Below are positions 330 to 59,986 of a DNA stretch of 64,000 nucleotides, one piece after another. The notes beneath the pieces were generated by a model. The model saw nothing but the letters and a program-made list of their open reading frames with translations. It made no database searches and was not told the DNA's origin. The translations under genes and the position numbers were made by a program. The stretch is from assembly GCA_951406725.2 (NCBI GenBank), contig OX597820.1, positions 32,302,001 through 32,366,000 of the forward strand, read 5' to 3'. The stretch comes from Octopus vulgaris (Eukaryota). The stretch's first letter is position 1; each line of letters starts with the position of its first letter.

Positions 330-496
330 CGTAAAGTATACTAGCCATCTCAATATGGCTAACCACTAAGGGTGGGTGTTATTGTAGCTTTTAGCCCCAG
401 GAGATTATCGTCTCCAGCTGGCTTTAGGCACACTTTCTGCGCCCTTATGATATTTGCAAAGGGAGGTCATCCCTCTCTCGTAAACCTAAGTGATAC

Positions 497-539
497 GCAC
501 GGACTGCAGTTTCGAGGTATTTGCCTCTTGTCAACGTAC
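497..539 (-). ncRNA. Minimal type I hammerhead ribozyme (U3-A8 core variant)
   Basis: Minus strand reads GTACG-TTGACAA-GAGG-caaata-CCTC-GAA-ACTGCAGT-C-CGTGC: 5-bp stem I, 4-bp stem II, perfect palindromic stem III, GUC cleavage triplet. Confidence 0.85.
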
Positions 540-658
540 GGTAATCACCGGTTTTCGATGAAGAGAGACCTGTTTGCAAATATCTATTTAATGTTTTTCC
601 CAGTAACCACTGTCGCTGATTTCGAAAAACTGTCTGACACTGCAAAGGGGAGTGAAGT

Positions 659-4134: not shown

Positions 4135-4861
4135 CAGGGGCCCGGTTATGGACTCTTTTGAATACTTTTTTTACTATGGAGGGAAGGCACATAGTTCAGT
4201 GGTTTGAGTATAGGGTTCACAATCATGAGGTAGTGAGTCCGATTCCCGAACCGGGCTGTATGTTGTGTTCTTGAGCAGGACACTTTATTTCACGTTGCTC
4301 CAGTTCACTCAGCCGTAGAAATGCGTTGCGACATCACTGGTGCCAAGCTGTATCGGCCCTTTGCCTTTCCTTTGGATAACATCGGTGGCGTAGAGAGTGG
4401 AGACTGGTATGAGAGGGTGACTGCTGATCTTCCATAAACAACCTTAGTCAGATTTGTGCCTCGGAGGGGAACTTCCTAAGTGCAATTCTATGGTCATTCA
4501 TGACCGAAGGTTCTTTACCCTTATCCTTACTCTAGTGGACCCTTACAGCCATTCAATGTTTAAAAATTAGTTTTATAGAAACTTCTTTCAAAATTCCTAT
4601 TTTGTTTTTCACGCATTCTCTTGTGAGAACAGGTTTCCGTAACTCTGAGAGAACAGGTTTCCGTAACTAGAAGTCGAACTTTGTTAAACATTAGAGAAAG
4701 AAACCTAGTTGTTTCTTGCAATAATTCATCTAACCCAAACATTTTAATAGACGCTAAAATACTACTGTGGATCTCCAGTTTACTGTTTCATTTGCTAGGC
4801 CCCCCGAAATCTTAAAGTGCCCGAAATATTGGGGTCATACGGACACGGCTGAGAACCACTG
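4135..4861. mobile_element. Putative hAT-type MITE interrupted by a SINE
   Basis: Starts CAGGGG, ends GAGAACCACTG (Charlie-like terminus). Flanks atatagat/atttagag resemble a degenerate 8-bp TSD. Confidence 0.4.
4183..4525 (+). mobile_element. tRNA-derived SINE family D (CORE-like central domain)
   Basis: A/B-box-like head (tagttcagtgg...gtccgattcc) then ttcttgagcaggacactttatttcacgttgctccagt. Relatives at about 19610-19780 and 39805-40040. Confidence 0.7.
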
Positions 4862-9900: not shown

Positions 9901-9943
<43 letters not shown>

Positions 9944-10217
9944 CGCAGTATATATGCATATATATGTATGTGTGTATATACAAAACTTCAATTAAGTAAC
10001 GGTCATGTATACAACTTGAACAGGCACATATCGGTACATAAACACATGTTCATATGTACATACACATGTACACACACACACACACACACTCGTCAACACA
10101 CTTACCTAAATATTCACGTACATGCATACATACATACATACATACATGCGTATAGGCATGCACGCATGCATACGCATGTACAGCTATGCATGCGCTCATA
10201 CATGCATACATAAATAA

Positions 10218-10260
<43 letters not shown>

Positions 10261-10390
10261 CATACATACATACATACATACATACATACGTACATACATA
10301 CACACATACATACATACGTACATACATACACACATACATACATATATTTATCACGAACTAACTGTTACTTTCTCAGATGCAGCACGGAAT

Positions 10391-10441
10391 TTTGTCAGTG
10401 AACAGGTCGCGGTCTCAAAGCGACGAAAATATTTTGGCAAA
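10391..10441 (+). ncRNA. Minimal type I hammerhead ribozyme (G3-C8 core variant)
   Basis: TTTGTCA-GTGAACA-G-GTCGC-ggtctcaaa-GCGAC-GAA-AATATT-T-TGGCAAA: 7-bp stem I, 5-bp stem II, palindromic AATATT stem III. Confidence 0.8.
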
Positions 10442-10528
10442 TTAAATTTAAATGTTGAAGTGAATCCAGCGGTCTTTGTGCGTTTTTAAATTACTCGTAA
10501 ACACCTTCCACGCTGATATTGTCATATG

Positions 10529-21098: not shown

Positions 21099-21140
21099 AC
21101 TTGACCGGTTTCACTTTTTCAGAAAAAGATTGTCAAAAGT
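21099..21140 (-). ncRNA. Minimal type I hammerhead (U3-A8)
   Basis: ACTT-TTGACAA-t-CTTTTT-ctg-AAAAAG-t-GAA-ACCGGT-C-AAGT, followed by AATAAA. The element ends in (TA)n near 21010. Confidence 0.78.
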
Positions 21141-22888: not shown

Positions 22889-22925
22889 CTAAAATTTTCG
22901 TTCCGTCTTGAAAACTTCTCAATAG
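22889..22925 (-). ncRNA. Minimal type I hammerhead (U3-A8)
   Basis: CTA-TTGAGAA-GTTTT-caagac-GGAAC-GAA-AATT-T-TAG; palindromic AATT. Confidence 0.65.
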
Positions 22926-23520: not shown

Positions 23521-24180
23521 CTACTGGGTATATTTCCCATTTAGTATTGGGTATGTTTTATTTATGAGGACGTACTCCTGTATTTGTCTGAGTGTCGGGT
23601 CCTTTGGGTGCTTGGATAAGATGCAGATGTCAAGTTGACCCAGGTTGCCGCCATGTTGGTCCTTTGCATGTTGGTAGAGTATGGAGGACTGTTTTTTGTC
23701 GTCATATTCTCTCAAATGTTCATTTAGTCGTTCCGCAATGCTCCTAGATGTCTCTCCTATGTATGTCATGTTCATGTCTTTACAAGCACCTTCTATGCAT
23801 CTTATGCTGTAAACTACATTTCTAGTTCTACAGTTGATGTCAGGTCTAATCCTACATATGCAGTTACCATTGGTGCATATGACATTCTCAAAGGGGTACG
23901 TCCTACATAGTTGTGATCTGACGGAGTTCCCTGGCTTTTCAACAATCTTAATGTTGAGTTTGGTTTCCTTCAGAGCTTTCCTAAATGTACGGGCTAGTTC
24001 TCCATGGGCTGTGGCCTCTACAAACACCACTCTTTGATATTTTCTGGATTTATACCTCGTGTTCACTCTGTTTGCTTTGTCACAAGTTCATTGTATCCTA
24101 TTCCAGTCTTTGTTTCTGTATCTAAGGCAGGTACCACTGGTATCATTACATATAATGTTATCTAATTTCTTTCTAGCACC
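23521..24180 (-). mobile_element. Penelope-like element fragment: C-terminal GIY-YIG endonuclease
   Basis: ORF 23521..24066: Cys-rich linker (CTNGNCIC...NCRTR), NVVYSIRC...YIGETSRSIAERLNEH...HAKDQH...RQIQEYVLI...PILN. This is the PLE GIY-YIG signature. Confidence 0.9.
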
Positions 24181-25413
24181 CTTGTACCCCTATATAAACA
24201 TACAAATCAACATACAGACGGATAGGTACACAGGTTATATGAACAGACAAGCAAACATACACACACGTACACAAATGAAGACAGAAACACATGACCATAT
24301 ACACACACACTTTCCTTCACAGAAGAACACATATGGAGACATACATCCACACGTATGGAGATACACATCCATACATACAGACACAGTACATAGTTGCAAA
24401 AACCCATACACATACACACTCAGACATACACACACATCAGACATACACACACATGAAGACAGACACACACACACACACACACACACGCACATCTAAAGTT
24501 TATCCTTTAGATGGAGAAAGATAGGGATCACCTGTTGCTGCCGTATTTTCCACATGATGTTAAATTATTGAGAAGAATCCATGCAGCATATACAGTTACT
24601 GGCGTAAATAGATAGAGCTGCTAACAGATAAACTACAATATAATCCCTGATTATCATCCGCTAAATATGATTTAGTTATTACTAACGTCTCTAATAAACA
24701 GCGTATTATAAAGAGGATAAAATGTATATACTATATATAGAAAAAGCAAGCAGAAAACAACATCGAAATTAGTGATGACTTATACCTGCAAGAAGTTTAA
24801 TTTTTAACACGTTATGCCAAATAACTTCGGACATCTTTTGCTGTTATTTTGACCTCTTCAGCAAAACATAGCCATTGGCTGTGCTTGTTAAATTGGTGAT
24901 GAATGAATAACTAAAACGAAATTCGAACTCCTGTAATTGATATGTTGTTTTCGTGCCTATTAAATAGCAAGGTGAACGTCCTGTAAAATGATATATTTCG
25001 TCAGCTCATTATTCGGTGAATGTCCTAAATATGGTGTGTTATGCTCTGTCGACTCTTATCCAGATGATCGCCCTACTTTTAATACGAACAGAACCTGAGC
25101 CGGTGACGTTGTCTTTGAGTTGTCACTCAACAAGCTGAAAAGCGTAGCTAAATCCCTCATCGATTACCTATCATGCGTGCTCGTTAAAACACAGGGTGGG
25201 TTGGATTTTAGACACTAACGTCCGGGCTACGCTAACTAGACGGGATTTTCACGGCTGGTATTTAGTTGAAGAGAGGTTTGATTGCTCAGTTTTGGCCTAG
25301 GGTTAAACAACGGGAGCAAACAAAAACAACAATTATTAGAGAAATCAAATGTATATTTAAAAAATAATCATGCAGCAACACAAATTACAACAATGCCCAG
25401 ACGAGAAGAACAC

Positions 25414-27070: not shown

Positions 27071-27146
27071 GTCTCTGATGATGGATTACCCAGTGTACGG
27101 ACATGCTAGCCTATCATTTGGGATATCCCTGAAACAGCTGTAAGAC
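27071..27146 (+). ncRNA. Type I hammerhead with canonical core and long stem II
   Basis: GTCT-CTGATGA-tggattaccca...tgggatatcc-ct-GAA-ACAGCTGT-A-AGAC; perfect palindromic stem III, GUA triplet. Confidence 0.82.
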
Positions 27147-36264: not shown

Positions 36265-36297
36265 TTTCTGACGAAGAGTTCCGCTCGAAACGTTAAA
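36265..36297 (+). ncRNA. Minimal type I hammerhead (ACGT palindrome)
   Basis: TTT-CTGACGA-A-GAGT-tcc-GCTC-GAA-ACGT-T-AAA, in a ~210-bp element ending in (TA)n at about 36402. Confidence 0.8.
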
Positions 36298-39349: not shown

Positions 39350-39385
39350 CAGTACCGGTTCCAGTCATTGAGACTTTTTCAACTG
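39350..39385 (-). ncRNA. Minimal hammerhead (U3-A8; GAA mutated to GGA)
   Basis: CAG-TTGAAAA-AGTC-tcaat-GACT-GGA-ACCGGT-A-CTG; same family as 43229 and 43540. Confidence 0.65.
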
Positions 39386-43176: not shown

Positions 43177-43626
43177 GGAAAGAAAAGTCAAGGTAGAAAA
43201 TGCTAAAATAATTATATAAAAAACATTTCAGCACCGATTTCAGTCACTGAGACTTTTTCAACTGTAAGTATGGAAAACAATTAAATTTTGGGGAAAATTA
43301 AAGAAAAGTTTTTTAAACGAATATTTGCATAGTATTCAAATACAAGGGGCATTTTCCTTGTTTCTGCCTGTCTCTGTCTCTCTTGTTTACTCTTCGACCT
43401 CGAACTCACAAGAGTAAACAAGAGAGACAGAGACAGGCAGAAACAAGGAAAATACCCTTTGTATTTGAATACTATGCAAATATTCTTTTAAAAAACTTTT
43501 CTTTTAATTTTTCCAAAATTTAATTGTTTTTTATACTTAAAGTTGAAAAAGTCTCAATAACTGAAACCGGTACTGAAATATTTTTTTATAAAATTATTTT
43601 AGCATTTTCTACCTTGACTTTTTTCC
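43177..43626. repeat. Large foldback (~215-bp arms, 15-nt spacer) with a hammerhead in each arm
   Basis: Arms about 43177-43394 and 43410-43626. HHR motifs at 43229-43264 (-) and 43540-43575 (+), consensus CAG-TTGAAAA-AGTC-tcaat-GACT-GAA-ACCGGT-A-CTG. Confidence 0.88.
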
Positions 43627-54379: not shown

Positions 54380-54423
54380 ACAAAACGTTTCGGCTGATAT
54401 ACCCTCCAGCCTTCTTCAGGTGT
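54380..54423 (-). ncRNA. Minimal type I hammerhead (classic Penelope form)
   Basis: ACAC-CTGAAGA-A-GGCTG-gagggtatat-CAGCC-GAA-ACGT-T-TTGT. Confidence 0.8.
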
Positions 54424-56657: not shown

Positions 56658-56727
56658 GGTTATACCTAGTTTTCAAATTTTTTTAGCAAATAAAATAATG
56701 TGCCTGGTGAAATTCTCATCAGTAACC
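56658..56727 (-). ncRNA. Type I hammerhead, canonical core
   Basis: GGTTA-CTGATGA-GAATTT-loop-AAATTT-GAA-AACTAGGT-A-TAACC, then AATAAA. Confidence 0.8.
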
Positions 56728-57749: not shown

Positions 57750-57790
57750 CACGCTGAGGACGGGTAGCCACCCAGAAACTCGAGTCTGTG
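57750..57790 (+). ncRNA. Type I hammerhead, canonical core, GUC site
   Basis: CACG-CTGAGGA-c-GGGT-agcc-ACCC-a-GAA-ACTCGAGT-C-TGTG; perfect palindromic stem III. Confidence 0.85.
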
Positions 57791-59150: not shown

Positions 59151-59986
59151 ATTTATAAATGAGGGTGAAAAATCGATATTAATTTAATAATACCATTAAT
59201 TTAACACCGAGTGGCTTAGCACAAAAAACTAGGGAGAAAATACAAATTTATACATAAATTATTAGAGAGTTACCACTATGTGGATAGCTCTAGTGCTAAA
59301 AATAGCTCCGATAGTATAGCCACCGAAATGATGTTTCCAACTAGAAATAACATTACATTTAACGGAAGGAAAGTGAAACATAACGAATAAATTGATTGAC
59401 CCTGAACAATTGTTTCATTACTAATGTAATTTTACTTACATCTATAAATCATTTTTAGCACTAGAGCTATCCACATAGTGGTAACTCTCTAATAATTTAT
59501 GTATAAATTTGTATTTTCTCCCTAGTTTTTTGTGCTAAGCCACTCGGTGTTAAATTAATGGTATTATTAAATTAATATCGATTTTTCACCCTCATTTATA
59601 AATTTATAAATTTAATTATGCGGCAGTAAATATTTTATTTGATGCAGCATACGTTTCCAACGAGTCCTAGCATGCCTTTCGCGGGGAATTTGAGGCATAA
59701 CTAAAAATGCAATTGGTTAAGCCGCACGTGTATTTTGACGCTCGTGTTGGTCTAATAAATTGTATTTAAGACAAACCTCTGCTGATGATTTATAGATGTA
59801 AGTAAAATTACATTAGTAATGAAACAATGGTTCAGGGTCAATCAATTTATTCGTTATGTTTCACTTTCCTTCCGTTAAATGTAATGTTATTTCTAGTTGG
59901 AAACATCATTTCTGTGGCTATACTATCGGAGCTATTTTTAGCACTAGAGCTATCCACATAGTGGTAACTCTCTAAAAATTTATGTA
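59151..59986 (+). mobile_element. Retrozyme-like element: 483-bp monomer in partial tandem with 5' inverted copy
   Basis: tttttagcactagagc recurs at 59452 and 59935. 59151-59451 is the reverse complement of a segment spanning the monomer junction. HHR at 59777-59837. Confidence 0.78.
59777..59837 (+). ncRNA. Type I hammerhead, canonical core
   Basis: CTCTG-CTGATGA-(ttta...ATGTAA-gtaaaa-TTACAT...taat)-GAA-ACAATGGT-T-CAGGG. The inverted copy has the perfect palindrome ACAATTGT. Confidence 0.75.

Follow-up and report, generated by a model that had tools for sequence, protein, structure and literature searches.

The analysed stretch, hereafter the window, comprises 64,000 nucleotides of Octopus vulgaris DNA and contains a series of hammerhead motifs together with remnants of the elements that carry them (Table 1). 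The motif at 10391..10441 reads, on the forward strand, stem I, the core GTGAACA, one extra G, stem II, GAA, AATATT, U17 and the 3′ strand of stem I. G3 and C8 of the core correspond to 10398 and 10403, and the extra G follows A9 at 10405. Stem I comprises 7 bp, with a G-U at one of them, and stem II 5 bp with a loop of 9 nt. The palindrome of stem III (10428–10433) directly precedes U17 (10434), 3′ of which cleavage is predicted to occur. Both stems dominated the predicted ensemble with pair probabilities of 0.87–1.0 (0.4 for the outermost pair of stem I), while the folding z-score was –1.96 and 8 of 200 shuffled sequences were equally stable. Anatomy and fold were thus in agreement with the preliminary description, which had reported GTGAACA with a 7-bp stem I and a 5-bp stem II. 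Stems I and II are arranged about the core in a three-way junction, and the invariant core residues (U4 G5 A6, A9, G12 A13 A14, A15.1-U16.1 and H17) are present in the window copy as well as in the family to which it belongs, here called family A. Positions 3 and 8 form a Watson-Crick pair in this family, as G-C. Rfam hammerhead models at gathering thresholds gave no match in the whole window; since the canonical motifs of the window were missed too, this test is weak for minimal forms.

Table 1 Hammerhead motifs and associated element features in the window, in order of position
Feature	Position	Strand	Basis
U3-A8 minimal hammerhead, other family	496..540	-	descriptor
5′-truncated 3′ pLTR of a family A PLE, between TA/CA microsatellites; 5′ edge approximate	9917..10522	+	alignment
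CTAAC, pyrimidine tract, CAG: branch-point/acceptor-like	10358..10376	+	sequence; 14 nt before stem I
Minimal type I hammerhead, G3-C8 core	10391..10441	+	sequence, descriptor, predicted fold
U3-A8 minimal hammerhead, other family	21099..21140	-	descriptor
U3-A8 hammerhead, sister family B, decayed copy	22889..22925	-	descriptor, family alignment
PLE ORF C-terminal fragment (endonuclease end), upstream of family B repeat, same strand	23533..24186	-	protein alignment
C3-G8 hammerhead, stem II closing mismatch (decayed)	27071..27146	+	family present in L124
C3-G8 minimal hammerhead	36265..36297	+	descriptor
U3-A8 hammerhead, decayed: GGAA for GAAA	39350..39385	-	inspection; pLTR relic
U3-A8 hammerhead, decayed: G17 and stem III mismatch; 39350 family	43229..43264	-	inspection
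U3-A8 hammerhead, decayed; 39350 family	43540..43575	+	alternative stem assignment
C3-G8 hammerhead, stem I closing mismatch (decayed)	54380..54423	-	family present in L139
C3-G8 hammerhead	56658..56727	-	descriptor
C3-G8 hammerhead	57750..57790	+	descriptor
C3-G8 hammerhead	59777..59837	+	descriptor

The pLTR around the motif belongs to a Penelope-like element (PLE) and is 80–82% identical to the family A copies L016, L317 and L323, with 82% to L317. The start codon of the family A ORF is altered in the window copy, which is probably a truncated, passive insertion. A tandem array of hammerhead monomers, by which a non-LTR retrozyme would be recognized, was not present in the window, where family A is represented by a single copy. 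Family A copies sit in TA repeats and are often inverted head-to-head and 5′-truncated; passages of PMC8557442 describe TA-repeat targets and inverted pairs for PLE ends.

The other hammerhead motifs of the window were surveyed with a strict descriptor that left positions 3, 7 and 8 free and required A9 and a near-palindromic stem III. It recovered 9 of 13 noted sites (four C3-G8, four U3-A8 and one G3-C8), while 0.1 motif was expected in locally shuffled window DNA. The site at 43540 was recovered solely under an alternative stem assignment, and the four sites that were missed (27071, 54380, 39350 and 43229) represent decayed copies whose families are intact elsewhere. Degenerate families such as family C (see below) also escape this descriptor because of its demand for A9 and a near-palindromic stem III. 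At each of the 13 sites named in the preliminary description, the reported core was indeed present. The sites at 43229 and 43540, on opposite strands, are inverted partners. Their family, which includes 39350, shares 77–83% identity with the terminal repeat of an intact RT + GIY-YIG element whose two ends both carry U3-A8, and the pLTR relic at 39350 is 81% identical to the pLTR of an intact RT + GIY-YIG PLE.

G3-C8 proved to be the state of family A as a whole. A 22-letter pattern with positions 3, 7 and 8 free gave 6,147 exact matches genome-wide and a control pattern none. Among the matches listed (the first 100 of 6,147), 95 carried G3-C8 and none C3-G8, i.e., the literal consensus CUGANGA; judged by its sequence, the family A motif therefore departs from the hammerhead consensus and counts as a variant of the class. 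With a second family A pattern (3,743 matches), G3-C8 was found in 93 of 100 among the matches listed. When 60 copies were chosen by their 3′ end alone, 30 spanned the motif and 29 of these had G3-C8; the palindrome AATATT was kept in 28 of the 30, and the extra nucleotide after A9 was G in 29. A further 94 copies, fetched without regard to motif likeness, comprised 80 with G-C, 13 with a single change, one with a gap and none with C-G. U4, G5, A6, G12, A13, A14 and the palindrome are conserved across the family, and no second letter at 3% or above was seen at 10398 or 10403 (contigs; four runs; organisms B, C, D and E). One mismatch recurred: G3.G8 occurred in 8 of 152 family A copies (e.g., L004, L010, L018, L318 and L321, of which L318 is an older full element), as against only four with G3.U8, a transition. 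We considered the G3.G8 copies as relics of an intermediate lineage and rejected this, as their differing sub-lineage backgrounds make them look recurrent. The preliminary description had also named the case that would speak against it, a CUGANGA family consensus with the window copies as independent mutants; this case is excluded, as G3-C8 and U3-A8 are both family-wide.

The partner ORF of family A was found only via a search with the N-terminus of family C (150 places, 40 of them fetched), which led to full family A elements. In L317, a broken ORF is flanked by G3-C8 motifs at 534 and at 4795, and in L316, L323 and L324 the motif lies 3′ of the ORF. The location typical of minimal PLE hammerheads, in pLTRs around an RT + GIY-YIG ORF, is therefore found at both ends of L317 and at the 3′ end of the other three. 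The 1,025-aa frame of L323 matches GIY-YIG, and its best relative is labelled as a reverse-transcriptase-domain protein; Pfam returned no families for the family C frame or the L317 frame. Several other candidates for the partner were discarded: the PLE ORF beside L058/L061 belongs to another family, the similar neighbours in L007, L022, L055, L078 and L119 each have their own 3′ end, and a 2.2-kb composite subfamily, which is older and has G3-C8, lacks an RT. The 68-aa frame of this subfamily had no protein relatives, and its genome copies are all non-coding. This composite element (L182–L201) took up the G3-C8 repeat together with a short inversion, and TAACCC-like repeats lie inside some of its copies. 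L047 shows a 182-aa intronless frame directly beside a family A copy and opposite its hammerhead strand, which we take to resemble a dCMP deaminase and which might be a retrocopy.

Two sister families with other 3-8 pairs could be linked to family A. On the 3′ side of the motif, families A and B align with a score of 71 versus 44 ± 5.6, and none of 2,000 shuffles scored as high. The window copy of family B reached z = 4.2 against A, compared with z ≤ 0.9 for the flanks of seven other window motifs. Family B, with 1,817 matches, carries U3-A8 in 90 of 100 among the matches listed, and the ORF fragment upstream of its window copy is 46% identical to residues 793–1010 of the family A ORF. The U3-A8 families of the window had been described as four unrelated ones; their U3-A8 cores stand, but the family at 22889 is homologous to that at 10391 by flank alignment and RT tree. 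Family C gave 3,276 matches with C3-G8 in 98 of 100 among the matches listed; its motif precedes an intact 1,312-aa frame, and a second motif follows the frame. A tree built from 13 RT rows placed A (G-C), B (U-A) and C (C-G) in three groups within one clade (support 97/100, 83/95 and 99/100, respectively), with RT identities of 44–62% between families. G3-C8 arose once in this sampled tree, which contained no named PLE clade reference RTs and had a distant outgroup; neither a branching order among A, B and C nor an ancestral 3-8 state was recovered from the 13 rows. The observation that C-G, U-A and G-C are all present thus holds in a stronger form than originally claimed, as all three occur even within three homologous PLE families.

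To place these states in the genome background, we scored 600 kb of sequence, taken as 60 round-coordinate tiles of 10 kb each, with local dinucleotide shuffles as control. At a score of at least 9, the tiles yielded 20 motifs versus 0.7 in shuffles, comprising ten C-G, seven U-A, two G-C and one U.C, so that positions 3 and 8 pair in 19 of 20. Without the score cut 27 motifs were found; four of these, all G3.A8, were rejected as ribozymes since they stem from one AT-rich satellite. A larger set of 189 motifs in 1.69 Mb, targeted loci included, fell into 31 clusters, which by majority were C-G (20), U-A (5), G-C (1), A-U (1) and others (4). The majority state was Watson-Crick in 27 of the 31, the remainder being three singletons and one 1:1 tie. 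No A3-U8 family was found among these clusters (1.69 Mb), the state being met in one singleton only; this candidate, in L005 near 602 on the minus strand, has weak stems. The earlier estimate that searches for CUGANGA miss about a third of the motifs was of the right order: 10 of the 20 tile motifs would be missed when counted by copy and, in the sample that includes targeted loci, 6 of the 26 C-G, U-A and G-C clusters when counted by family. Descriptors restricted to CUGANGA therefore overlook roughly a quarter (families) to half (copies) in the sampled genome DNA.

Comparison of the three families further revealed compensated changes in the helices. With each family represented by two sequences (six in total), 59 of 60 cells were paired, and both sides had changed in five of ten pairs, namely the 3-8 pair and two pairs in each of stems I and II. 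For the 3-8 pair, the covariation rests on three families and thus on two events, and is not a count of independent events. Within family A, 13 of 52 loop and flank columns had an alternative letter at a frequency of at least 10%, versus 1 of 32 core and stem columns (Fisher p = 0.007, CpG columns set aside; the columns are linked and not independent). The sole variable core or stem column changes U-A to U.G, retaining a wobble pair. These patterns support selection on hammerhead structure and, less clearly, on cutting. The preliminary description had gone further and inferred selection on catalysis; its structural part is borne out, but the catalytic part is weakened by changes at A9 and A13 in young families, and by another PLE, that of Anolis, which inserts in vitro without cleavage.

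The first of these young families is family C itself. Position 9 is C in 96 of 100 among the matches listed (of 3,276), stem III is non-palindromic, and the elements are young and intact (L289–L315, e.g., L311 on the minus strand); some older copies retain the A9 of the invariant core. A second young PLE (L277–L279, L061) has a separate upstream frame followed by an intact RT-endonuclease frame of 784 aa, and the motif of the L277–L279 family combines U3-A8 with A13C and a stem I of 2 bp. In family B, the mismatch C3.A8 was found in 8 of 100 listed copies, well above other single changes, and the examples L204 and L214 share no obvious sub-lineage marks. Fold prediction for family A also allows a pair between G3 and U17 (probability 0.67), by which stem I would be lengthened and the fold become inactive. 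The palindromic stem III is present, but the modelled double-hammerhead dimer lay 4–5 kcal/mol above the energy of the best cofold. Published passages on other PLEs point in the same direction: minimal PLE hammerheads were weakly self-cleaving in vitro (PMC4209133), and for the Anolis PLE, insertion in vitro was normal with hammerhead mutants, no RNA ends were seen at the cut site and cleavage needed protein (PMC11167929).

From the observed anatomy, the family-wide G3-C8 state, its placement in both repeats and the C-G and U-A pairs of the sister families, we infer that the family A motif probably still cuts element RNA slowly, 3′ of U17, either as a dimer or with the help of the element's protein. 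Tandem or read-through transcripts would carry two copies of the motif, and the palindromic halves of stem III could pair in trans, completing two sites. G3-C8 would retain the Watson-Crick geometry that positions the 2′-OH of residue 8, and because this 3-8 geometry is kept, cleavage 3′ of U17 would persist at a lower rate; U17 would also avoid the trap of a Watson-Crick G3-C17 pair. Cleavage may trim precursor RNA to element units, and such trimming would give master copies a weak advantage, so that the motif could be kept in the long term and yet be lost. We regard it as evenly balanced whether family A represents an active natural G3-C8 hammerhead, the 3-8 pair having been exchanged among C-G, U-A and G-C within one PLE clade via a mismatch state lacking activity in vitro. 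If so, this clade and the A9C sister would form a natural series for testing the need of PLEs for self-cleavage.

It is unlikely, but conceivable, that the motif serves as a protein-binding or folding element of the PLE ribonucleoprotein, with the 3-8 pair held in Watson-Crick form for structure. The covariation of stems and 3-8 pair in spreading families with an altered A9 or A13 would suit such a role, as would the dispensability of the protein-dependent Anolis cleavage for insertion (PMC11167929, passages cited above). Binding alone, however, would not obviously need U4, G5, A6, G12, A13, A14 and the palindrome, all of which are kept. Moreover, positions 3 and 8 pair when the hammerhead is in its catalytic conformation, which weighs against a purely structural function.

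We also consider it rather improbable that the motif is vestigial, drift having fixed G3-C8 in a single master copy and the Watson-Crick match being a matter of luck. Such an origin would fit the single appearance of G3-C8 in the sample, the expectation that roughly a third of double changes yield a Watson-Crick pair, and the spread of degenerate cores in family C and L277–L279. Reaching G-C from C-G or U-A takes two transversions through a mismatch. On the other side, sub-lineage variants lie in loops and flanks rather than in core and stems, the invariant core and compensated stems persist across families whose RTs are 44–62% identical, and the Watson-Crick majority in 27 of 31 motif clusters is likewise hard to reconcile with drift. 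Finally, it is scarcely credible that the sites arose by chance or by separate mutations, after insertion, in copies of CUGANGA families: several window copies are decayed and AT-rich repeats do yield false motifs such as the G3.A8 satellite, but this reading is refuted by the family-wide states (C3-G8 in 0 of 100 listed family A copies, U3-A8 in 90 of 100 listed family B copies) and by the shuffle control (20 tile motifs against 0.7).

Small hammerheads of PLEs with a reduced palindromic stem III have reportedly been shown to cleave as dimers by Lunse, Weinberg and Breaker. Family A resembles them in its reduced palindromic stem III and PLE association. Passages of Cervera and de la Pena (2014) describe minimal hammerheads in metazoan PLE pLTRs with an extra nucleotide, a palindrome and natural U3-A8 variants, including U3-A8 families with about 1,300 matches in Schistosoma (PMC4209133). 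As judged from these passages, family A shares the type I architecture, the lack of evident tertiary loop contact, one nucleotide between 9 and 10.1, G10.1-C11.1, the palindromic stem III, the presence in both pLTRs and the many solo or inverted copies (PMC4209133). It differs in its G3-C8 core, a state shown by none of the 56 representatives in their Fig. S3, and in the inserted base, which is G in family A, whereas the consensus there is H, with G in 1 of 56; three 3-8 states within one RT clade are likewise particular to the octopus families when set against that text (PMC4209133). Covariation of C3-G8 to U3-A8 in nature was reported by Perreault et al. (2011), whose pertinent passages name U3-A8 only (PMC3088659), whereas G3-C8 is found here as well.

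The swapped pair itself is familiar from engineered ribozymes. According to the relevant sections of these reports, cleavage of a PLE hammerhead is abolished by either single mutation but recovers in part in the double mutant C3G/G8C (PMC11167929); in a pairwise screen, no double mutant other than the G:C swap gave rescue in that hammerhead region (PMC9901934); and a G3-C8 variant showed higher activity when position 17 was G instead of C (PMC3884650). The same pair, with activity partly restored relative to single mutants, thus recurs in the accounts of PMC11167929, PMC9901934, PMC8495972 and PMC3884650. These are laboratory mutants, whereas the swap in family A is fixed naturally in thousands of copies with U17 at the cut site. 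A natural G3-C8 hammerhead was not found in the literature searched, which held engineered mutants only and did not extend to some core papers and supplements; nor was one found in the available parts of PMC8495972, PMC6765202, PMC6155905 and bioRxiv 10.64898/2026.07.22.740005. U3-A8 covariation and the link to PLEs are known; what the present sequence comparison adds is G3-C8 linked to full elements and three pairings in one RT clade. The advance is modest, because U3-A8 and the PLE link had already been published. Nevertheless, a natural G3-C8 would confirm evolutionarily a tertiary pair that, in the literature searched, is swapped in this manner only in the laboratory. It also bears on why PLEs keep hammerheads, given weak cleavage in vitro and dispensability for insertion in one reconstituted system: three related autonomous families with three 3-8 pairs, one of them with an altered A9, provide a ready-made comparative test.

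Upstream of stem I, the window pLTR contains a branch-point and acceptor-like signal (Table 1), which could possibly mark the end of a pLTR intron. Eighteen of 30 family A copies start matching the window copy at 10376–10378. No splice joint at the acceptor was seen in contigs, the repeat-rich part being skipped. A donor-like GT lies at about 9994, some 380 nt upstream of the acceptor, and the microsatellite-rich stretch between them is reminiscent of the Penelope pLTR intron. In the L280 family, an acceptor-like CAG itself forms stem I.
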